From positions 111,975 to 169,772 of the forward strand of contig JBGSJG010000004.1 in assembly GCA_041742135.1 (NCBI GenBank): DNA of 57,798 nt. Direction: 5' to 3'. Origin of the DNA: Patescibacteria group bacterium (lineage in GTDB: Bacteria; Patescibacteriota; Microgenomatia; UBA8517). Within the stretch, counting starts at the first letter, position 1. The number at the start of each line of letters is the position of its first letter. Under the pieces are notes generated by a model. The model was not told the DNA's origin, ran no database searches, and saw only the letters and a program-made list of their open reading frames with translations. This document shows positions 34,772 to 57,798 of the stretch, piece after piece. Position numbers and translations under genes: made by a program.

Positions 34772-35866
34772 ATGGCTGAAGACAAAGCTTTGAGTAGAAG
34801 GGATTTTTTGAAGCTAAGTGGGGCAGCAACTGCCCATGCAGCGCTTACTTTAACTGGAGTTGCAGCAGTTGCTGAATCCTTTCAGGTTCAGCCGGAAAGT
34901 ATTGCTCAGCGGGTTGAAAATATGCCACTTTCAGAGCTCGAGGCTTTAGTTTACGAAAAAACTCCCGTGGTGCCTGATATTGCCGAAATTTCGGAACGAC
35001 TTCAGGGGATTGCTCGGATTGAGCCTGGAGGTAAACTCATGAAAGCAGGTTCTTCTGTGGCCCAAGGGATGCTTAAAAGCGCTTTTGGTGAAGACGCTGA
35101 GGTTAATCTGGGGCGGGAACAAGGTGTTTTCGATGAAGTGCAAAGATACTTTCATTTTCCGGAAGGCGCCATTGAGGCGGCTAGTGTGGTTGGTTCGGAT
35201 ATGGACACCCTTTTGTACGAGTCTATGTATTGCCGCGGCCCGATGCCGTGCCCTCCCAATACTAGCGTAATAGATGCATATATAGACTACTACCATCCTT
35301 GGGTATCAATTAATTTTGTAGGTAGCAACTTGGTGCGTAGAGATGTGCCCTTTGAAGTTTTTGAAGGATTTGTCGAAACTTATATTAATCACTTTGTGCA
35401 CAAAGGGGTCATCCCTATAATGACGACTTTTCCACATCCTAGAAGTTCTGAACACGAGCCTTATAACACTTGGTTTAATGATCCTCAACCGATTGGCGGA
35501 AGAGGTATGACAAAGGAGGAGGAAGCTACCGAGCAAATTGAATACAGAAGCTCTATGCTTCCTGAAAACGCTCTCAAATACAATGCGATTTTGATTGAGG
35601 TTGCAAAAAAGTATCAAGTTCCGATAATTAACCTCCAAAGAGGCGTAGTCGAATCTGCCGCAAATAATGGTACTTGGCTAGCAATGCCCCCTCGAATGCC
35701 GGAAATTGATCCTGAACATTTTTCTCATTCTATTGGTGAAGCTAGGTCAACTTTGACCTTGCCGCCGACTGGAGGTCGGTTTGAAAATGGTGAACAGGCG
35801 GTGAGTTACTTTACGCTTTTGACCTTGAGTGAGCTGATCCGGGCCCAAGCTAGCGTCGTTGACTAA
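34772..35866 (+). CDS. Tat-exported hypothetical protein
   Basis: Canonical twin-arginine signal LSRRDFLKLSGAATAHAAL. Confidence 0.65.
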   Translation: MAEDKALSRRDFLKLSGAATAHAALTLTGVAAVAESFQVQPESIAQRVENMPLSELEALVYEKTPVVPDIAEISERLQGIARIEPGGKLMKAGSSVAQGMLKSAFGEDAEVNLGREQGVFDEVQRYFHFPEGAIEAASVVGSDMDTLLYESMYCRGPMPCPPNTSVIDAYIDYYHPWVSINFVGSNLVRRDVPFEVFEGFVETYINHFVHKGVIPIMTTFPHPRSSEHEPYNTWFNDPQPIGGRGMTKEEEATEQIEYRSSMLPENALKYNAILIEVAKKYQVPIINLQRGVVESAANNGTWLAMPPRMPEIDPEHFSHSIGEARSTLTLPPTGGRFENGEQAVSYFTLLTLSELIRAQASVVD

Positions 35867-47011: not shown

Positions 47012-48160
47012 ATGGACACACTTGGGTACAAACGTATCGCAAGACATCAACACTCTTCCAAGTTACGCAAAAACTTTTTATTACTTTCGAGTGATTTGAA
47101 GCTTTTTAGCCGTGAGCTAATTTCTTTTTTGGCAGGGACTTCTAAAGTTGCGGTGGTGAAATTTGCAACTGGCAAAGACTTCGCTGTAACTTCACTTTAT
47201 ACACAGAGAGGCAAGCTTTCTAAGCGCTTGATGCATTCAGGGATGGCGGGAATTGCGGCTTTTGGTGTGATGGTGGCACCTATTGTGGCGGAGGAATTTC
47301 CAGGCACTGGGCTTGATCCTTGGGAAGCTCCATCTCCATCTCAGGTATTGTCTGCTTCGGATTCCGAGATGACGGAAACGCTGATCGCGGAGCATGATTA
47401 CCGGGACCGAATCATCGATTATGAAGTCCGAGAGGGAGACACCGTTTCTACGATAGCCGAGAAGTTTGGAGTGACGATTGACACCATTCGTTGGCAAAAT
47501 AATCTACTTAGTCGAGATGCGATAAAAATCGGCCAAACTTTGGAAATTCTTCCGCTGTCCGGTGTATCGCATAAAGTGAAAAAAGGTGACACGGTTTATT
47601 CTGTAGCTAAAAAATACGACGTTGATGCCCAGGCTATCGTCAATTACCCCTTTAACGTATTCGTGAATGATGAAACTTTCGAGCTTGCTATTGGCCAAGT
47701 TCTTATTGTCCCCGGCGGAGTTAAGCCTGAGGAAGTTCAGTGGTCGCCAACTGCTCGAGTCCGCCAGACTACACCAGATGCGGGAACTGTAGTTGCTTCT
47801 GGGCAATTTGTCTGGCCGGCACAAGGAAGCATCACTCAATACTTTGCTTGGTACCACAAGGGCTTGGATATCGCCAACCGTGCAGCACCACCAATCTTGG
47901 CTGCGGACTCCGGTACCGTTGTGGTTGCTGGCTGGATGGACAATTATGGTTATGGAAATCGTGTGATTATAGATCACGGAAACGGCACACGAACGCTTTA
48001 TGCTCATATGTCGCGTATTTATGTAAACGTTGGCCAGACTGTTAATCGAGGGGACTCAATTGGCCAAATGGGCTCTACTGGTCGCTCGACAGGAACACAT
48101 CTTCACTTTGAGGTTATCCAGGGTGGATCAAATATCAATCCGCTTTCGGTTCTTCGCTAA
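47012..48160 (+). CDS. LysM-domain M23 peptidoglycan endopeptidase
   Basis: Two LysM repeats (YEVREGDTVSTIAEKFGV, HKVKKGDTVYSVAKKYDV) and the M23 motifs HKGLD and GTHLHFEV. Confidence 0.9.
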   Translation: MDTLGYKRIARHQHSSKLRKNFLLLSSDLKLFSRELISFLAGTSKVAVVKFATGKDFAVTSLYTQRGKLSKRLMHSGMAGIAAFGVMVAPIVAEEFPGTGLDPWEAPSPSQVLSASDSEMTETLIAEHDYRDRIIDYEVREGDTVSTIAEKFGVTIDTIRWQNNLLSRDAIKIGQTLEILPLSGVSHKVKKGDTVYSVAKKYDVDAQAIVNYPFNVFVNDETFELAIGQVLIVPGGVKPEEVQWSPTARVRQTTPDAGTVVASGQFVWPAQGSITQYFAWYHKGLDIANRAAPPILAADSGTVVVAGWMDNYGYGNRVIIDHGNGTRTLYAHMSRIYVNVGQTVNRGDSIGQMGSTGRSTGTHLHFEVIQGGSNINPLSVLR

Positions 48161-48921
48161 GCTATTGCAACCAACTTGCTTCTTCTGTGGTTTGAAATCC
48201 GAGTAAGAATCAGAACTGTCTCAAATAGAACAAGAAGTGGAAGGGCGCAAAGTACGTCAGCGAGAATCGAGTCCATTGGTAATAAAATAACAAAGAAAAA
48301 TGAACCTAGATAAATCCATGCGCGGCTTTTCCGTAACATTTCTTCTTTGATAAGCCCCACCTTTACAAGTAAGTAAAGAACTATTGGGATTTGAAAACTG
48401 ACCCCCATAAAAACGGCTGTAAGAAGTACGGTGTTGAGAAGCTTGCTAACATCTAAAATGTTACCTATCCCCAAAGAGATCGATCTTGCCAAAAATATTT
48501 CTATCTGCCACTTCATTACCCAGCCGCCAAATGCAAAGCCGGCGATAAAAAGCATGATTGAAAAAAGCAGCAAATTTACAAGCGCTTTAAATTCTTTTAT
48601 TTTAAGCGCAGGTCTTAAAAATGACAAAATCTGGGCAATAATTAGCGGAAGAGTAAGGGTAAGCCCGCATGCCACGCCGCAGCCCACTGCAAGATTGATA
48701 AACTGAAAAGGGGAAGTAAAAACAATATTCACTCCTTCAAGACTTAGAGTTTGAATAAGAAACCTAATTATTTGCTCGTAAAACACAAAACCAGAAATTG
48801 ATGCGATAGCAAAAACTAAGAGGGTAAGCAGAATTCTCTTGCGAACTTCAGAGATAAAATGGGTGTATTGATTTACTAACTTCTCCCAATCAGAAGACGT
48901 CAAAGGCTTTATTTGTTCCAC
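48157..48921 (-). CDS. tatC: Twin-arginine translocase subunit TatC
   Basis: HFISEVRKRIL (HLxELRxR-like), six TM helices, FLRPALKIKE loop. Confidence 0.85.
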   Translation of the reverse strand: MEQIKPLTSSDWEKLVNQYTHFISEVRKRILLTLLVFAIASISGFVFYEQIIRFLIQTLSLEGVNIVFTSPFQFINLAVGCGVACGLTLTLPLIIAQILSFLRPALKIKEFKALVNLLLFSIMLFIAGFAFGGWVMKWQIEIFLARSISLGIGNILDVSKLLNTVLLTAVFMGVSFQIPIVLYLLVKVGLIKEEMLRKSRAWIYLGSFFFVILLPMDSILADVLCALPLLVLFETVLILTRISNHRRSKLVAIA

Positions 48922-48948
48922 TGCACCATCATTCTAGCAAATCGAAGC

Positions 48949-49110
48949 TTAATCTTCCTTGGTCTCGTCCGTGTCTTTGGCTGATTTTTTAAATTCACGA
49001 ACAGCCTCTCCAAGACCTTTAAAGAATTCCGGAATTTTTTTACCACCGAATAAAAGAAGTATTATGAGGCCAACAACTAGAAGTTCAGTTGTTCCGATTG
49101 ATTGCAACAT
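48949..49110 (-). CDS. tatA: Twin-arginine translocase subunit TatA/E (53 aa, below the ORF-track cutoff)
   Basis: My own translation: [53 protein letters not shown]. Confidence 0.8.
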
Positions 49111-49112
49111 GG

Positions 49113-49328
49113 TTAATCAGACGCCTTTTTCTCAGATGTGTCGTCGCTTACAGTTTCTGAAACAGCATCAGTAAATGTCTTTTTAACCTGCTTTATTTCT
49201 TTGAGTGTTTCGCCGCTTGTACGAGCCAAGCGAGTAACAACTTTGCTACCAAAAAACAAAACCAAGATCAAAGCAATAATGATCATCTCGGTCGGACCAA
49301 TATTTTTAATAAAATTAAGTATTTGCAT
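49113..49328 (-). CDS. tatA: Twin-arginine translocase subunit TatA/E, second paralogue
   Basis: [36 protein letters not shown] fits the TatA hinge and amphipathic helix. Confidence 0.75.
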
Positions 49329-49376
49329 CTGGTGACATATTACAACTCCGAAAAATAAAATACAATAGGTAATGTG

Positions 49377-49577
49377 TTACTCCTCCACCATTTGAGCGCT
49401 AAACCAAGCGGCTCCATCCCAATATTCCAAGCTTTTTGTATCTGAGTTAAAACCAAATCTGCCTCGCTTGGCTGTTTTTGGTCGCTTTGAACTCGTCCAG
49501 GTTTCAATTGCGGGCAAGCCAGCCATTAACGAAAGACCATGCCCAATGTCTACGAGTAACTGATTGTGGTTCGACAT
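49377..49577 (-). CDS. 66-aa protein homologous to the C-terminal module of the giant protein
   Basis: IETWTSSKRPKTAKRGRFGFNSDTKSLEYWDGAAW aligns with [35 protein letters not shown] (about 20 of 38 identical). Confidence 0.65.
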   Translation of the reverse strand: MSNHNQLLVDIGHGLSLMAGLPAIETWTSSKRPKTAKRGRFGFNSDTKSLEYWDGAAWFSAQMVEE

Positions 49578-49596
49578 AAATCACTGCCATTATAAC

Positions 49597-52500
49597 TTAT
49601 ATTCTTTTCATCGGCAGTAAAAGCCAACGCTGCCCGTCCCAATATTCTAGGCTTGTGGTTTCGATGTTGAAGCCAATTACGCCGAGCTTTGGTTTTTTGG
49701 GTCTGCCCGCTGTGTTCCAAGAAGGAATCGTTTGGCGAGTCACAGTCGACAATGCGTTGTAGCTTGGAGTTAAGGACTTAACAATTTGTGGATTTCTATA
49801 AAAAATCACTTTTTTAGTAGGAATCAGTGGCACAGGCAGTACAGGAAGCGCTATCGCTTCTGACGGTGAGGCTGACTTACTTGAACTTGGTGAAGCTGAT
49901 TCGCTTGTGGTTACAGGCGAAGGCGACGCGCTGGCCGTTGGGCTTGGGCTTGCGGACGGAGAAACTGATGGTGATTCACTGCCTGCAGAAGGTGATGCAG
50001 ACGGCGAAACCGAGCCTGATGGGCTTATCGACGCCGACGGGGAGAGCGATGGTGAGCCGGACGCACTTTCGCTTGCCGATGGACTAAGCGATAGGCTTGG
50101 GCTAACGGACTGCGATTCCGACGCACTTGGTGATTGGCTCGCTGATGGGCTAGTGGAAGCCGACGGAGAAACTGATTCGCTGACACTGGCCGTTGGGCTA
50201 ACGGATGCAGAAGGGGACACTGATGCAGAAGGTGAAATCGACAACGATCCTGAAGCACTGGGCGAAATACTGGCAGAGATCGAGGCGCTTGCGCTAGTGC
50301 TTGCCGATGGCGAGATTGATAAAGATGGTGATAGGGACTGACTTTCGCTTGCAGAAGGGCTGATCGACGCGCTAGTGGAAGCACTCGCGCTAACTGATGC
50401 TGACGGCGAAATTGACACACTAGTGGACGAAGACGGACTTGTAGAAGCTGATGGAGATAGTGAGGCAGATATAGACGCGGAAGCCGAAGTGCTTGAGGAT
50501 GGTGAGATTGATGCAGAGATACTGCTAGATGGACTTCTTGAGGCAGATGGTGATACTGATTGACTCCCGGATGCCGAAGGTGAGACTGATGAGCTTGGTG
50601 AGACGGACGCGCTGGTGCTGGCACTTGGGCTTATGGATGAAGATGGAGAAACTGATGCAGAAGTTGATGTGGATGGTGAGACCGATAGTGAAACACTGGC
50701 TGATGGACTAGTTGATGCTGATGGACTTAAGGATGCAGATGTTGATGCCGATGGTGATACTGATGCACTGGTGCTTGCGGATGGGCTTATGGAAGCAGAC
50801 GCACTCGAAGAGGGCGATGCAGAGGCGCTTGGCGAAACTGATGCTGATACGGAAGAAGAGGGACTTGTGCTACTAGACGGCGAGATTGAGGCAGAGGTAG
50901 ATGCGCTAGGACTAATAGATGTTGAGACAGATGCTGATGGACTTATAGACGCACTGACCGAAGCAGAGGGACTAGTGCTCGCGCTTGGCGAGACAGAAGC
51001 GGAGATGCTTGTGGATGGGCTAGTACTTGCGGATGGTGACACAGATGCACTGGTTGACGAAGACGGAGACACGGATGCTGATATTGACGCAGATGGTGAT
51101 AGTGAAGCGGACACCGATGATGACGGGCTAATTGACGCACTTGGGCTTATTGACGCAGATATGCTGGCACTTGGAGAAATCGAGGCGGAGACGGATGAAC
51201 TTGGCGATACAGAGGCCGAAATCGAAGAAGATGGCGAAATAGAAGCTGATGGTGAAATTGAGGCAGAGGTGCTCGCGCTCGGACTGACGGATGCAGAAGG
51301 GGAAACAGATGTTGATACAGAAGAGGAGGGGGAAATTGACGCAGACAAAGATGCTGACGGAGAAATAGATGCAGACAGGGATGCTGAGGGAGACGTGCTG
51401 GCGCTTGGTGATACTGATGCACTGGTGCTCGAAGAAGGACTGACGCTACTAGACGGCGAGATTGAGGCAGAGGTAGATGCGCTAGGACTAATAGAAGCTG
51501 AGGCAGAAGCAGACGGACTTACGGATGCGCTTGTACTTGTGGACGGGCTGATACTTGCGGATGGTGAAATGCTCGCACTAGAAGATGTACTTGGTGAGAC
51601 CGAGGCGCTTGGGCTTATAGATGCTGAAATAGAAGCACTAGGCGAAACAGATGCTGATATTGACGCAGACGGTGAAATAGAAGCAGATGTTGATGCACTG
51701 GGTGATGTACTTGCGCTTGGTGAAACAGATGCACTGATACTCGAAGAAGGACTTGTAGATGATGATGGGCTAATTGACGCGCTTGCCGAAGCAGATGGAG
51801 ATCTGGAAGAAGAAGGTGAAATGGACGCGGAAACGGAGGAAGAAGGGCTGACACTTGCAGACGGAGATATGGAAGCTGAAGTAGATGCACTTGGAGAGAT
51901 TGACGCACTTGGACTTATCGATGCAGAGATACTGGAACTTGGAGAAACCGATGCGGAGACGGATGAACTTGGCGAGATAGAAGCCGAAATAGAAGAAGAC
52001 GGTGAAATAGAAGCTGAAGGGCTAATGGAAGCCGATATCGACGAGCTGGGTGATATCGATGAGCTGGGTGAAACAGATGCGCTAATGGACGAAGAGGGTG
52101 ATACCGATGCTGATACAGACGCAGACGGAGAAACTGACGCACTAATACTAGAAGATGGACTTGTACTCGCAGACGGCGAGATTGAAGCTGATGTTGACGG
52201 TGACGGCGATACTGAGGACGAAGGTGAAATGGACGCAGACACCGACGAGCTAGGTGAGGTACTGGCAGATGGTGAGATAGAAGCCGATATTGATGAACTT
52301 GGTGATATAGATGCACTGACAGACGATGATGGAGACACAGAGGCCGAGGTGCTTGCGCTCGGCGACACCGAGGAGCTGGGCGAAATGGATGCAGAGATAC
52401 TGGAACTTGGAGAAACAGACGCGCTTGGACTAATGGAGGCTGACACAGATGAAGAAGGCGAAACAGAGGCCGACATTGAAGAGCTTGGTGAAATTGAGGC

Positions 52501-55500
52501 GGATGCAGAAGATGACGGTGAAACAGATGCCGATGGGCTTATGGAAGCCGATATTGACGAGCTAGGGCTTATTGACGCAGACGGACTTATGGATGCAGAG
52601 CTAGACGAGGATGGGGAAATTGACGCAGACGGACTGATGGAAGCCGAGATCGAGGCTGAAGGTGAAGTGGAGGCTGATGGTGATATGGATGTGGACACGG
52701 ATGATGAAGGCGAAGTGCTGGCAGATGGAGAAGTAGATGCACTGATACTGGAAGAAGGACTGATGCTGGCAGAAGGCGAGATGGATGCACTTACTGATGC
52801 AGACGGTGATACAGATGCTGATAGCGAGCTTGACGGGCTAATGGAAGCCGAAACTGAGGAGCTCGGTGAAATGCTTGATGAGGGCGACACCGACGCGCTG
52901 ATTGATGAGGAAGGAGAAATCGAAGCGGATATAGAACTGGACGGACTCACAGATGCGGATACAGATGCAGATGGACTAACAGAGGCCGATGGAGATATGG
53001 ATGCTGACACAGAACTAGACGGTGAAGTGCTTGCACTTGGGGACACGGATGCTGAATGCGACGCAGAAGGAGAAATGGATGCGGATATAGATGAAGATGG
53101 ACTTATTGACGCAGATATTGACGACGATGGGCTGATAGATGCACTAGGTGATATTGACGCAGACACCGACGAGCTGGGAGAAACCGATGCCGATGGACTA
53201 GTAGATGCGGAAGCGGATGAACTCGGTGAAATACTGGCAGATGGAGAAACTGACGCACTGGCTGATGCACTGGGTGAAATCGAGGCAGATGGTGAGATCG
53301 AAGCCGATATTGATGAACTTGGGGAGACAGATGCACTTACAGACGACGATGGGGACACGGATGCCGACGCAGAAGCTGAAGGACTGATACTAGAAGAGGG
53401 TGAAATTGAAGCGGAGATGCTTGCGCTAGGCGAGACAGACGCGCTCGGGCTTATGGATGCCGATATTGATGAGCTGGGCGACACGGAAGATGAAGGCGAG
53501 ATTGACGCAGACAATGACGAGCTGGGTGAAGTACTGGCGGAGGGTGAGACCGAGGCTGAAATACTTGCTGAAGGGCTGATGCTGGCTGACGGCGAGACCG
53601 ACGCACTAATTGATGAGGAAGGAGAAATGGATGCGGATATAGAACTGGACGGACTTATAGAGGCGGATAAAGATGACGATGGGCTGATAGATGCGCTGGG
53701 TGAAATTGATGCGGATACAGAGCTGGATGGTGAAGTACTGGCGCTTGGGGATACCGAAGCTGAATGTGAAGCAGAAGGTGACACTGATGCGGATACAGAT
53801 GAAGATGGGCTTATTGATGCAGATATTGACGACGATGGGCTAGTGGATGCACTGGGCGAGATTGATGCAGATACGGAAGCTGATGGGGATACTGATGAAG
53901 ATGGCGACACCGAGGCAGAAGCGCTAGCAGAAGGGCTGGTTGACGCAGACGGACTAATAGAAGCTGAGATCGAGGCTGAAGGTGAAGTAGATGCTGATGG
54001 AGAAACAGATGCAGAAACTGACGAAGACGGTGACGTACTGGCGGATGGTGACACAGATGCCGATATTGATGAACTTGGGGAGACAGATGCGCTAACTGAT
54101 GCACTTGGAGACACAGAAGCAGAAATACTCGCACTTGGCGAGATTGAGGAGGAGGGTGAAATTGATGCTGAAACTGACGAACTCGGAGAAACCGATGCTG
54201 ATGGGCTTATAGAAGATGAAATACTGGAACTTGGTGACGTGGATGCACTAGGAGATATAGAGGCAGAAATTGATGAAGATGGTGACGTACTGGCAGAAGG
54301 CGATATTGATGAAGAAGCACTCGCTGAAGGGCTGATACTGGAGGATGGTGATACAGATGCGCTATTGGACGCAGAAGGTGAAACAGAGGCTGATATTGAA
54401 GAGCTTGGTGAAATTGATGCCGATATTGACGAGCTAGGGCTTATTGAGGATGACGGTGACACAGATGCAGACACAGATGATGATGGTGATGTACTAGAAC
54501 TTGGCGAGACTGAGGCTGATATTGAGGAGGACGGTGAAATTGAGGCCGACGGGCTAATAGATGCAGATGCTGAAGAGCTAGGTGAAATGCTGGCTGAAGG
54601 GCTTATTGATGCACTGATGGATGCGGAAGGAGAAACGGAAGCCGACGCTGATGCCGACGGAGATATGGATGCTGAAACACTGGCCGAAGGTGATATGGAT
54701 GCAGACGGGCTGACAGAGGCTGACACTGATGTGCTTGGGCTTATGGAAGCACTCGGACTAATGGATGCTGATGCCGAGGCTGAAGGTGAAACAGAGGCTG
54801 ATGGACTTATCGAAGCGCTCGGACTGATTGACGCCGATATTGATGAACTAGGTGAAACAGATGAACTTGGAGATACAGATGCAGAGACAGATGAAGAAGG
54901 CGAGATACTAGCGCTTGGACTTATGGATGCAGAGCTAGAGGCTGATGGTGATACTGACGCCGACGGGCTAATGGAAGCCGAAACTGAGGAGCTCGGTGAA
55001 ATGCTTGATGAGGGCGACACCGAAGCGCTGATTGACGCAGAAGGACTGATGCTGGAAGAAGGCGACACTGAAGCGGAAGTACTTGCACTCGGTGAAATTG
55101 ACGAGCTTGGTGAAACCGATGCTGAGATACTCGACGAAGGACTTACTGATGCAGACGGCGAAATTGATGCAGACACGGACGCAGACGGAGAAACGGAAGC
55201 TGATGGTGAAATTGATGCAGAAACCGACGAACTTGGCGAAATACTGGCTGATGGTGATACGGATGCTGAGATGGATGCGGACGGACTAAGTGAGGCGGAC
55301 GGTGATACACTGGCGCTTACAGAAGCAGATGGTGAAATTGAAGCACTTGGTGAAATAGAAGCGCTAACTGATGTTGACGGACTGACCGAAGCTGATGGAG
55401 AAATTGATGCACTGACAGAGGCCGAAGGACTGACAGAAGGGCTTCCTGCCGGAGCGGCTTTGACAATAAAAGAAAGCATGCCTCCTTTTTCGAAAGTTGT

Positions 55501-56334
55501 GTTGTTATAAACATCTGATATGGTTACAGATGTCGATGTAGATGAGGCTCTGGACATCACAAACATCGCTGATCCGCCGGAAAGCCCGTCATCATAGACT
55601 TCAGTCCAGCCGGAATCATATGTGGGATTAGCCGGGGCATCATATGCGGCGTATGGCACAGCCGAGAGGGTAATATCATCTGCTGTGGGGGTTGCAGCTA
55701 GTGTCTGGGATTGCCCCCCGTCACCAATATCTGTCGAGTCGGTTGTTGCAAAACCAGCTATGGGAGTAGTTGTGTCGTAGCCAGTGAAAGCAACTACATA
55801 GACAACCCAATTAAACATCGCCCCCATTGCGGGAGCTACAGTTATTGCCATTGATGAAGGAGAGCCGCCCACCTCAGCAGTAAAAACATTTCCTCGTACG
55901 GCCCACGATGATTCTTCTCTTGCCTGGCCCTCGAACGTATAGCTTAGCCCACCCCCTGAAATAGAGGGCTGCCCAAGGTCGCCTAAAGTCATCCACATGT
56001 TGGTCACAAAAACCACCAAGAGTGAGTTGGCAGGAGGAGTGAAAGAACCTGTTGAATAGTCTCCTGTTCCGTAACTAGAAGCAGAAACCCAAGAACCTAT
56101 ATCTGTACGGTCTAGGCCTGCCGCTGGTGACGGAGAGACGGATGAGCTGGGGGAGACCGATGCCGAAGCTGAAGCCGAAGGGCTTATCGACGCCGACAAC
56201 GATGCAGACGGAGAGATGGATGCACTTTCTGAAGCAGATGGTGAAACTGAAGCGGAATCAGAAGAACCACCACCAGAAAGCGCTATGTCAAACGCATTAG
56301 CGCCGTTATCGCGAAGTGTTATGTCAAATGCCAT
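49597..56334 (-). CDS. Giant (2,245 aa) serine-rich repeat surface/fibre-like protein
   Basis: Uninterrupted ORF. It has a ~230-aa unique domain, ~1,860 aa of SAS[VI]-SPS[AS]S[VIT]-SPS[AS]S[VIT] units, and an 86-aa unique C-terminus. Flanking genes are on the same strand. Confidence 0.8.
49858..55443 (-). repeat. Coding tandem repeat, 48-nt (16-aa) period, ~5.6 kb
   Basis: The period is seen in the translation. Units are strongly diversified at synonymous sites, with all six Ser codons used. A short extra block lies at 56125-56259. Confidence 0.85.
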
Positions 56335-56408: not shown

Positions 56409-57512
56409 CTAGGAGGCAGTACTGTTATCGCTTCTTCCTACGTGAGTTCCGTTTTCGTAAACCTCGCCATACATGTTAATTGTATTGTCATACCAAGTAA
56501 GCGTATATGCTCCACCAGAAGTTGTAGTTGCGTTTCCGACGAATTCACCAGTGTCAGCGCGGTGAATTCCAACAGTCAACCCCGCTCCGTCTGCATCGAC
56601 GTAGCCTGAAACTGTGCCAGCAATCGTATAGGTGTGAGAATGGTAAGTTATCCAAAGTCCCAAACCGTATTGTTTGCTTGTACCAACTATTCGCCACTGG
56701 CGTGAACCCTCGATGTCCATTCGAGAAGTATCGGTGTCATTGGGCCATCGCTTGAAAGCGAAGCGACAGACACCGTTGTTAATCCACGAACCGTTCTCAC
56801 CAACGCCGGTGTAGAGTGAAGAAAATAACGTTTCCCAGCCACCAGCAGGTGATTCCGAACCAAGTCGTTCAGTAGATAATACTCGCCCGTCAAGGGTCAC
56901 TCCAATCCCACGGCAATAAATAATCGGAACAACTGACATCAGCCAATAATTGGTTTCCAATATTTTCGGGTCGACCGTCGCCGCTGCCTGAACAATCGTA
57001 CCAGTCGCACGATTATTGGCAAAAATCGGGAAATAAGTAGAACGAGCGTGAACCCCGTCGCCGCCACTTGCCTTGCTGCTGGTGTAATTCAAGAGCATCA
57101 TACACGACATGTTGCCAATATTATTATTTGAACCCGCATACCACTCCGCCGTAAAAGTGTTTTCACCCCGAGTGAGTGATAGGGCCGCTCCCCGATTACT
57201 ACCAGAATCAATACGGTGAACGATAGAAGTCATTCCTGCCGTCTGTCCGTCAGCGGTTGGTGTGTATCCAGTAGCGGTTTGACTACCAGCCTTATACGTT
57301 AAAGTAGTAGAAGTGCCAGTAGAATTAAAAGTTATCCAAATTCCCGACTGCACCATCGTCAGGGTTCCTGGCTCTTGCAAACTGCGAGTAACGCTGGCCA
57401 TTGATTTATCACCAGATGTCAAAACATTATCTGAATCTTCCCCAATGCCCATCATCAAACTATTCAATATAGTCGTACTGGAGGAATGGTCGTACTCATA
57501 GGTTACGGTCAA
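56409..57512 (-). CDS. Hypothetical beta-rich protein upstream of the giant gene
   Basis: 367-aa ORF rich in G/T/S/N with no motif I recognise. TTG start directly after the upstream TGA. Confidence 0.55.
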   Translation of the reverse strand: MTVTYEYDHSSSTTILNSLMMGIGEDSDNVLTSGDKSMASVTRSLQEPGTLTMVQSGIWITFNSTGTSTTLTYKAGSQTATGYTPTADGQTAGMTSIVHRIDSGSNRGAALSLTRGENTFTAEWYAGSNNNIGNMSCMMLLNYTSSKASGGDGVHARSTYFPIFANNRATGTIVQAAATVDPKILETNYWLMSVVPIIYCRGIGVTLDGRVLSTERLGSESPAGGWETLFSSLYTGVGENGSWINNGVCRFAFKRWPNDTDTSRMDIEGSRQWRIVGTSKQYGLGLWITYHSHTYTIAGTVSGYVDADGAGLTVGIHRADTGEFVGNATTTSGGAYTLTWYDNTINMYGEVYENGTHVGRSDNSTAS

Positions 57513-57798
57513 TCAGCCGCCCAGAAACCCAATCATCGTTGTACCGGTCGTGACGGCATTTAATGATTTAGCGGCTGTGAAAGTCTCCGCCGTAATATCC
57601 CACATCACCCGAAAACCAGCATTGGAATCTTGGGTATTATCAATCGTGTTATAGGCATAAGTACTTCCCGCCGAATCAAGTTTCAGGGTCAAAGTTCCGT
57701 CGGTGGTAGAGTTAGGCATTGTACTTCCCCATAATTCGAGAAACGCCTGCCGAATTGTAACGGAAGCCTCGGGCAAAAATGGAGTTGTGGCGTGAGTC
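57513..57798 (-). CDS. Hypothetical protein, C-terminal part (the frame stays open to the right edge)
   Basis: No in-frame stop between 57776 and the window end, so the true start is probably outside the window. Confidence 0.45.
   Translation of the reverse strand, partial: THATTPFLPEASVTIRQAFLELWGSTMPNSTTDGTLTLKLDSAGSTYAYNTIDNTQDSNAGFRVMWDITAETFTAAKSLNAVTTGTTMIGFLGG

Follow-up and report, generated by a model that had tools for sequence, protein, structure and literature searches.

A 57,798-nt stretch of the genome of a Patescibacteria group bacterium (assembly GCA_041742135.1, contig JBGSJG010000004.1, positions 111,975 to 169,772), here called the window, carries a gene for a giant, fibre-like protein of 2245 aa and, directly downstream, a small gene whose 66-aa product is a free copy of the giant's C-terminal domain. 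Three genes of the twin-arginine translocation (Tat) system, tatA1, tatA2 and tatC, follow. Sequence comparison marks the 66-aa open reading frame (ORF) as a real, old gene, an ancient duplicate under selection, and across related loci its association with tatA is at least as strong as that with the giant. The explanation we prefer, tentatively and at slightly less than an even chance, is that the shared domain would serve a glycosylated fibre as its base, for docking and oligomerisation, with the small protein as the free partner of this base; the unit would work with the Tat translocase of the same cassette in export or anchoring. The features concerned are:

49377-49577, minus strand: small gene, 66 aa, a free copy of the ~65-aa, predicted all-beta domain
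49597-56334, minus strand: ORF of the giant protein, 2245 aa, with head, ~1850 aa of SPSAS-type repeats and C-terminal domain
49600-49797, minus strand: the giant's C-terminal ~65-aa domain, with the giant-type motif, from alignment and BLASTP
55435-56157, minus strand: the giant's head domain (residues 60-300), two beta-sandwich lobes in an AlphaFold2 (AF2) model
49113-49328, minus strand: tatA1, 71 aa, matching PF02416 at 35.8 bits (cut-off 21)
48949-49110, minus strand: tatA2, 53 aa, canonical TatA/E-like as judged from its translation rather than from a Pfam scan
48157-48921, minus strand: tatC, 254 aa, matching PF00902 (E 1.3e-37, 130 bits), of a cassette-specific TatC clade

The genes follow one another in the operon-like order giant, small, tatA1, tatA2 and tatC, with spacers of 19, 48, 2 and 27 nt and no terminator-like site found in 48000-50000, while a cluster of soluble family 2 glycosyltransferase (GT2), GT75-like and methyltransferase genes lies upstream of the giant. 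The ATG of the small gene stands 19 nt past the TAA of the giant and in a different frame, and an in-frame TGA six bases before this ATG in the window sequence excludes a longer N-terminus. A read-through, frameshift or invertible-cassette link between the two genes was considered and rejected: besides the differing frames and the TGA, the inverted repeats are weak and short, and the spacing varies by locus. tatA1 is in the same reading frame as the small gene, with one TAA between them (window 49329-49379). In an 83% identical relative on a single 991-bp contig (P0155), a 154-aa ORF comprises the small protein, a translated 16-codon spacer and TatA, and this may reflect either a naturally fused gene or an error in the sequence. 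A search of sequencing runs found no RNA run that contains the stretch; three DNA runs of one study do, with zero differing letters.

A first-pass annotation of the window had described the giant's C-terminal module as duplicated in a 66-aa gene 19 nt downstream, with about 20 of 38 residues identical, and both statements hold: BLASTP of the 66 aa against the last 77 aa of the giant gave 20 identities in 41 ungapped positions (E 2e-14). The 40-aa module that it delimited does comprise the shared core but is too short, as homology reaches ~25 residues further towards the N-terminus. With 37 relatives aligned, the sequences also line up on the N-terminal side of the core, at a (K/R)N motif and the strands after it, so that the 66-aa protein corresponds to the whole ~65-aa C-terminal domain of the giant. 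The same alignment has invariant W, R-P, G, N and W positions and a basic RPKK.K stretch. Small proteins carry IG.GLS.M.GLP in the N-terminal half and W..A.M in the tail, and the giant-type motif reads IPSWNT.GRPKK.K.G..GFN..T..LE.W.G..WL.LPMK(K/R)I. At the DNA level the two cores form a 70-nt direct repeat, 220 nt apart, with only 71% identity, and the duplication is therefore not a recent one.

Orthologues of the small gene, 64-82 aa long, were found at 14 genome loci, and a small-type ORF is present in 45 of 49 loci from a metagenome scan (33 groups at 95% identity), while giant-type tails end Ser/Pro/Ala (S/P/A)-rich giants at 18 loci. Over 53 well-filled columns of 14 small and 18 giant domains (the truncated small protein of genome G196 and a fragment from G006 were excluded), mean identity was 58.8% among small proteins (45-87%), 50.6% among giant domains and 43.5% between the two types; pairs from the same locus share 34-51%. 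Because small proteins resemble one another more than they resemble giant tails, the duplication appears to be older than the divergence of these lineages, and by this comparison the small copy is the more conserved of the two. An AF2 model of the 66-aa protein, computed with the alignment of relatives, is six-stranded and all beta, with a mean predicted local distance difference test score (pLDDT) of 82.4. It is barely credible that the ORF is non-functional, whether as a gene-calling artefact or as a part of the giant's 3' end that was duplicated and is now decaying. The ORF is indeed short, without family annotation and next to a repeat-rich gene, and the G196 copy is truncated, but against this stand the intact orthologues of constant length with their mutual identity, the type-specific conserved residues, the confidently predicted fold and the degree of DNA identity to the giant's copy.

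Some small proteins are longer variants of 123-190 aa, in which N-terminal H(S/T)(T/A)D..K repeats precede the full domain (P0024, P0027, P0037, P0044, P0053, P0064 and P0073), and genome G110 (L037 9503-10057) has a 184-aa variant in place of the 66-aa form. The small gene of G196 is cut short before the final G..W.

A profile was built from the giant's tail, the small protein and two relatives of 64-66 aa. Among 1.84 billion cluster representatives it matched 1062 at E≤1e-3, of which 160 reached E≤1e-10. Among the best 150 matches, 55 were at most 200 aa long and 95 were longer. The matches comprise (a) proteins that stand alone at 64-67 aa, or reach up to ~560 aa with the whole 65-aa profile at the C-terminus; (b) fragments of Ser/Pro/Ala-repeat proteins ending in the tail IP.WN..GRP......G..GFN..T..LE.W.G..WL.LPMKKI; and (c) larger proteins in which the 40-aa core occurs 3-16 times in tandem. 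Elsewhere in this genome (G000:C4:210636-225146, minus strand, outside the window), a 4837-aa ORF with an N-terminal helix-turn-helix and one transmembrane segment carries a weak internal copy of the core (E 5.6e-4) ~2120 residues in.

The window's two module copies match no Pfam or NCBIfam family. In the PHROG database, phrog_1325 matched residues 23-61 of the small protein (E 5.3e-8) and the giant's C-terminus (E 2e-7), and ten to twelve weaker matches (E 1e-4 to 0.5) are to other PHROGs, for the most part around profile positions ~40-80, close to the N-termini; PHROG 1325 has no assigned function, and the same is true of all but two of the PHROGs matched. A tblastn search of 50,697 cultured-phage records recovered the core (residues 24-58, 46-56% identical) from 103 of them, 102 belonging to Streptomyces phages and the other to a Micrococcus phage; the genes are annotated as minor tail, tail or tail-fibre proteins. 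In gp25 (426 aa) of Streptomyces phage Thestral the match lies at residues ~156-190, and the gene is the last tail gene before the lysis genes. Of the 95 longer profile matches, the 71 that are no longer than 1100 aa were scanned against Pfam; 54 had no family, six carried phage-tail domains (Phage_T7_tail in 2, Peptidase_S74 in 3 and Collar in 1), and Gly_rich_2, C1q and Laminin_G_3 were also seen. Close-relative searches of IMG/VR returned 2 and 1 loci, and on a 24-kb viral contig from that database the full small-type domain forms the C-terminus of a 509-aa protein whose gene lies inside a block of tail-fibre and tail-fibre-assembly genes. These matches place the module core in a phage-tail repeat family, PHROG 1325 and its relatives.

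The first-pass annotation had linked motifs of this form to the attachment ends of some phage tail-fibre and structural proteins. The profile search that it proposed did recover family members, phage tail and fibre proteins included, and the link to annotated minor tail, tail and tail-fibre proteins and to PHROGs is borne out, whereas the restriction to attachment ends is not, since the core is often internal or tandem (up to 16 stretches). The Pfam family DUF7360 (PF24059, gathering score 27.6 bits) was matched neither by the small protein (E≤1) nor by the giant's C-terminus (E≤0.1); 13 of the 37 aligned relatives match it weakly (best E 3.5e-5), and on these sequence matches the module is likely a distant relative. 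DUF7360 has no recorded function, and no mention of it was found in the literature searched, which did not extend to subscription journals. Thestral gp25, PHROG 1325 and DUF7360 share with the module a 35-40-aa core, RP..P..G..(F/Y)N..T...E.(W/Y).G..W; in virion proteins the unit is internal, N-terminal or tandem, whereas here a ~65-aa version of it ends a cellular giant and stands alone beside tat genes.

The predicted fold points, if weakly, in a similar direction. The top rows of a Foldseek search with the small-protein model, none of them significant, were phage CBA120 tailspike 3 (TSP3), the trimerisation domains of collagen XV/XVIII, a streptococcal phage hyaluronidase and Mtd. In a structure comparison with VIA the neighbours were residues 5-49 of Mtd (1yu0, Z 4.5, root-mean-square deviation 2.1 over 42 aligned residues), residues 583-623 of TSP3 (5w6f, Z 4.5) and the collagen domains 3n3f and 9bnb (Z 3.6, for the collagen XV trimerisation domain, and 3.2). 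The N-terminal domain of Mtd, the terminal domain of TSP3 and the collagen units resemble the model in size and in all-beta hairpin topology, but the scores are below the level of kinship and there is no sequence-profile match, the Pfam families for Mtd_N (PF18454) and phage-tail-like trimerisation (PF26696) included. By ESM-Atlas features, the nearest clusters are 64-68-aa hypothetical proteins, mostly of tailed phages (Uroviricota), at 0.94-0.96, and the nearest named clusters are PTL_trimer (0.90) and Mtd_N (0.88). These structural matches are leads rather than proof. The module is a beta unit of the tail-fibre type, and it may plausibly serve to hold or attach trimers. The small protein itself matched neither TatA/B/E (PF02416) nor TatC (PF00902) in the Pfam scan, and no tail-fibre assembly chaperone family was among its Pfam, NCBIfam and PHROG matches; a chaperone-like role is compatible with these results.

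The same conserved features could be read differently, with the domain as a non-covalent wall- or glycan-binding anchor that ties the base of the fibre to the envelope and the small protein as a lectin-like copy competing for the binding sites or priming them. The invariant positions and the basic RPKK.K stretch, with conserved Trp, Phe and basic residues, would suit such a role, as would the constant C-terminal position opposite a variable head and weak sequence echoes of DUF2510; the motif may also resemble wall-binding repeats. We consider it improbable: no known wall-binding family was matched in Pfam or NCBIfam, the phage modules sit inside tail proteins and often in long tandem arrays, which fits a structural repeat better than ligand binding, and both the exit of two signal-less proteins and the linkage to tatA would be left unexplained.

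Short repeats make up residues 1-60 of the giant; a globular region extends from there to ~300, and ~1850 residues of SPSAS-type repeats lead to the 65-aa domain. Twenty-three homologues of the head (residues 60-300) were found, 199-372 aa in length, and an AF2 model made with 25 sequences (pLDDT 89.2, predicted template modelling score 0.88) is all beta, with two beta-sandwich lobes. Foldseek returned nothing for this model at E≤0.001. With VIA the best match of the first lobe was the receptor-binding head of lactococcal phage Tuc2009 (Z 6.7), followed by Pgp3, YomS/XepA, STIV A223, BclA and C1q/TNF, all at Z<8, and the modelled lobe bears a weak likeness to the heads of trimeric fibre tips. 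Among the other giants the heads are unrelated but the tail stays the same, and the N-terminus is thus the variable end of these proteins and the C-terminus the constant one. A Pfam scan of the heads of six other giants, the L069 protein and the 184-aa small variant found no family besides one CxxCxxCC match, which sits in a probably over-extended ORF.

Relatives of the 654-aa GT2 encoded beside the giant, 48-68% identical, occur at 13 IMG/VR loci. S/P/A-rich ORFs adjoin the enzymes at seven of these, with different tails, and the module is found at none of the 13, so that the C-terminal domain appears to set the cellular fibres apart from the phage ones. The S/P/A-rich phage proteins at L070 3859-8592 and L075 8887-11874 end in tandem ~13-aa Y(T/S).RG(T/N)S(Y/W)..(K) repeats, which look like a different, phage-side attachment end. 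On the plus strand of the window, a 1631-aa ORF rich in Asp, Gly, Glu and Thr (50615-55510) is open opposite the giant's repeats, and the same is seen opposite other giants; it is most likely a by-product of the codon composition of the repeats and the strong GC skew (0.3-0.4), not a gene.

The linkage to tat genes was examined in 301 genomes sampled from the class. The module occurs in 15 of them and TatC in 33; TatC is found in 11 of the 15 module genomes versus 22 of the 286 others, and in all 11 the start of tatC lies ~0.5-0.7 kb beyond the small gene (in G001, beyond the end of the giant). Of the 15 module genomes, 11 have a large module-ended ORF next to a small full-profile ORF, which in one of them, G196, is truncated. 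When 11 loci in 10 of the module genomes were mapped by BLAST, the order was glycosylation genes, giant, small, tatA and tatC, with outer flanks that differ between families. The named relatives are metagenome-assembled genomes (MAGs) of Candidatus Woesebacteria, Levybacteria, an unclassified Patescibacteria bacterium and WWE3. Four more genome loci have giant, small, tatA and tatC in this order, one of them in a WWE3 MAG of another class. The metagenome groups are relatives at 45-61% identity rather than independent lineages, and some of their contigs probably duplicate genome loci. Counting informative groups, the small gene is followed by tatA at a distance of <800 nt in 27 of 28 and by tatC at <2 kb in 16 of 18, and in 25 of 30 the end of a giant-type ORF precedes it by <400 nt. 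Two tandem TatA-like ORFs follow the small gene at most of the metagenome loci; in the window, the 71-aa tatA1 is more divergent than tatA2 and has a weak side match to a phage holin family (E 0.0026). No module or S/P/A-rich ORF lies beside tatC at 16 TatC loci from module-less genomes, at one of which the contig breaks off shortly upstream of tatC.

In a maximum-likelihood tree of 30 TatC sequences, 13 of 14 linked TatCs and one contig-edge TatC form a single clade (ultrafast bootstrap and Shimodaira-Hasegawa-like approximate likelihood ratio test 100/100, branch length 0.75) that spans six families and WWE3, with TatCs that lack the linkage but come from four of these families placed outside it. 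The tat linkage shows co-inheritance and suggests a shared function.

The preferred explanation, with the domain as fibre base and the small protein as its Tat-associated partner, can be set out in steps. The giant has a fibre-like layout, with a variable N-terminal head, a long Ser/Pro/Ala stalk and a conserved C-terminal base, its stalk probably decorated inside the cell by the neighbouring soluble glycosyl- and methyltransferases. The shared domain would be the docking and oligomerisation unit of the base, akin to the small beta units that hold and attach phage tail fibres. The small protein would co-assemble with the giant's base, or take the same docking site, and would act in connection with the Tat translocase encoded directly downstream. 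Tat moves folded proteins, and would therefore be a natural route for a cytoplasmically glycosylated, signal-less fibre. We infer stalk glycosylation, oligomerisation, contact between the small protein and the giant, and a role of Tat in export or anchoring. When the last 77 aa of the giant and the 66-aa protein were co-folded, both with alignments, the scores were 0.04 and 0.12, below the mark of 0.32 and too low to speak for or against contact.

A number of observations weigh against this explanation. To our knowledge, Tat targeting always proceeds through an N-terminal twin-arginine (RR) signal, on the substrate or on a partner. Neither seven giants nor the small protein have an RR motif or a hydrophobic N-terminal region, and thus lack the signal of a Tat substrate. 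By hydropathy, no signal peptide or stretch of transmembrane grade was seen in the small protein or in any giant examined: the maximum over 19 residues is 0.63 in the first 100 aa of the window's giant, compared with 2.26 for TatA and 2.42 for TatC as positive controls, and the Ala-rich N-terminus of the L062 giant (1.74) is a borderline case. The kinship to fibre units is not reflected among solved structures, where a sequence search found nothing below E 0.5, and Foldseek found no match to the small-protein model in the PDB at E≤0.001 (E≥0.4); the VIA matches, all at Z≤4.5, are below the level that separates kin from common arrangements. There are also departures from the gene order. L128 has giant and small gene but no tat genes in 3.7 kb downstream, L112 has two tatA but no tatC in 5 kb, and the giant is not adjacent in five groups (L086, L089, L104, L123 and L126). 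In G001 (L042 9250-9830) the order is giant, tatA, tatA, tatC, without a small gene, and G196 (L040 12300-12800) has a giant and the truncated small gene but no TatC in the genome. The linked TatC of G110, the genome with the 184-aa variant, is the one that falls outside the clade. Finally, the genome encodes at least five ordinary RR-signal proteins, among 10 regular-expression hits, so that Tat has a conventional job and the linkage could be one of co-inheritance. The G001 giant ends in a small-type tail (...WLAAPLS), as a deletion between two direct-repeat modules would yield. The RR-signal proteins are:

34772-35866 of the window, plus strand: RR-signal protein, matching Pfam TAT_signal
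G000 C1:129564-130418: RR-signal protein
G000 C4:84912-86435: RR-signal protein
G000 C4:282438-283550: RR-signal protein
G000 C8:21200-22669: RR-signal protein

Their signals read S/T-R-R-x-F-L/I-K/R followed by a hydrophobic stretch, and by these sequence features the five are conventional cargo of the only TatC of the genome. The idea that Tat serves only the giant was rejected, given these proteins and the 16 of 16 module-less TatC loci without an adjoining giant.

Several of the same observations bear on another account of the small protein, as a transient template or chaperone on which the C-terminal domain of the giant would begin to fold and trimerise, or as a cap, with no tie to Tat and with the tat genes merely travelling along in a transferred block. 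The small gene lies directly downstream of the fibre gene, in a position like that of the small tail-fibre assembly genes after phage fibre genes; the module is kin to tail-fibre proteins and has a weak fold likeness to trimerisation units; ordinary RR substrates can account for the retention of Tat, and L128 retains giant and small gene without adjoining tat genes. However, the small gene adjoins tatA more constantly than it adjoins the giant, and in L104, L123 and L126 it stands beside tatA with the giant 1.8-4.7 kb off or unseen. No known fibre chaperone is a paralogue of the end of its fibre, no chaperone family of Pfam or PHROG was matched, and the cassette-specific TatC clade points to long co-inheritance. 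On balance this account seems unlikely, if by no means far-fetched.

A stronger version of the Tat connection would make the shared domain itself a Tat address: the small protein would dock on the specialised set of TatA1, TatA2 and TatC encoded next to it, pair with the giant's C-terminal domain of identical fold, and escort or anchor a signal-less, glycosylated fibre of megadalton scale. We regard this as a long shot, and we would say the same of its corollary, that such Tat transport would be independent of a signal peptide, directed from the C-terminus and built from a phage tail-fibre joint.

Known systems offer partial parallels to the fibre base and its proposed Tat-associated partner. 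In Bacillus subtilis phoD-tatAd-tatCd, the gene of a Tat substrate lies directly upstream of a dedicated tatA-tatC pair, and the order of cargo, tatA and tatC in one unit is similar here. Signal-less subunits are exported as Tat 'hitchhikers', such as E. coli HybC with HybO and DmsB with DmsA, and the likeness is to a signal-less, pre-folded and probably pre-modified protein that needs an exporter of folded proteins. PhoD and the hitchhiker carriers have an N-terminal twin-arginine signal, whereas the giant and the small protein are without one, and the Tat of this locus also has ordinary RR substrates.

BclA of the Bacillus exosporium and the serine-rich repeat glycoproteins (SRRPs) Fap1 and GspB of Gram-positive cocci are glycosylated, hair-like surface fibres. 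They resemble the giant in the succession of head, repetitive glycosylated stalk and anchoring end, and in having dedicated cytoplasmic glycosyltransferases encoded nearby, and heads of the BclA/C1q type weakly resemble the first lobe of the giant's head (Z 4.9-5.1). The giant's stalk is of the SPSAS type, not collagen GXX or SRR1/2, and the polarity is reversed, with the head N-terminal. The giant also lacks the marks of an SRRP, as it has no signal peptide and its C-terminus reads ...LLLPMKRI rather than LPXTG with a transmembrane segment; no accessory Sec genes were noted at the locus, and no genome-wide search for them was made. We know of no free paralogue of the base domain in the BclA or SRRP systems.

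The first-pass annotation had also put forward the 367-aa protein encoded upstream of the giant as a partner of the module, which was not borne out: no homologue is present at the 11 related loci from 10 genomes, and the ORF is half of a broken paralogue. The closest genomic associate of the small gene is the tatA-tatC pair, which that annotation had missed.

56409-57512, minus strand: 367-aa ORF upstream of the giant, the C-terminal half of a TGA-interrupted paralogue, outside the conserved unit

In the region G000:C4:168383-174736, two neighbouring proteins of 636 and 643 aa have a third paralogue, whose C-terminal half is this ORF. A 285-aa N-terminal half and the 367-aa ORF abut in one frame, separated by a TGA at 57513-57515, and the 636-aa paralogue has Trp at the aligned position; the TGA must have arisen from TGG by a nonsense change or else be a recoded stop. 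None of the four ORFs (636, 643, 285 and 367 aa) matched a Pfam family, and the 367-aa ORF matched no PHROG. By these comparisons, the 367-aa protein is specific to this genome and is not a conserved partner.

The module domain itself is not new, as it belongs to a known but unannotated phage-tail repeat family. What appears to be undescribed is the conserved, stand-alone ~65-aa protein, its pairing with a giant, mucin-like protein through the C-terminus of the latter, and its near-constant place before a dedicated tatA-tatA-tatC set in the Candidate Phyla Radiation (CPR); no description of the stand-alone protein, of the pairing or of the position next to tat was found in the literature searched. 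Bacteria of the CPR, or Patescibacteria, live attached to other cells, and little is known of how such bacteria assemble their huge surface proteins and bring them out of the cell. The locus described here is a compact and widely conserved unit of four parts: the fibre, whose head varies, the separate copy of its base domain, a pair of TatA proteins and a TatC belonging to a dedicated clade. A phage-shared, putative glycosylation kit adjoins it. Read modestly, the unit defines a new family of small proteins and suggests that an unannotated domain, widespread in the tail proteins of phages, serves as a base or docking end. Should the link to Tat prove functional, Tat would here for the first time be seen to handle a signal-less glycoprotein by way of a dedicated small partner, and the link would explain how a phage-style fibre, decorated in the cytoplasm, was adapted to the surface of a cell.

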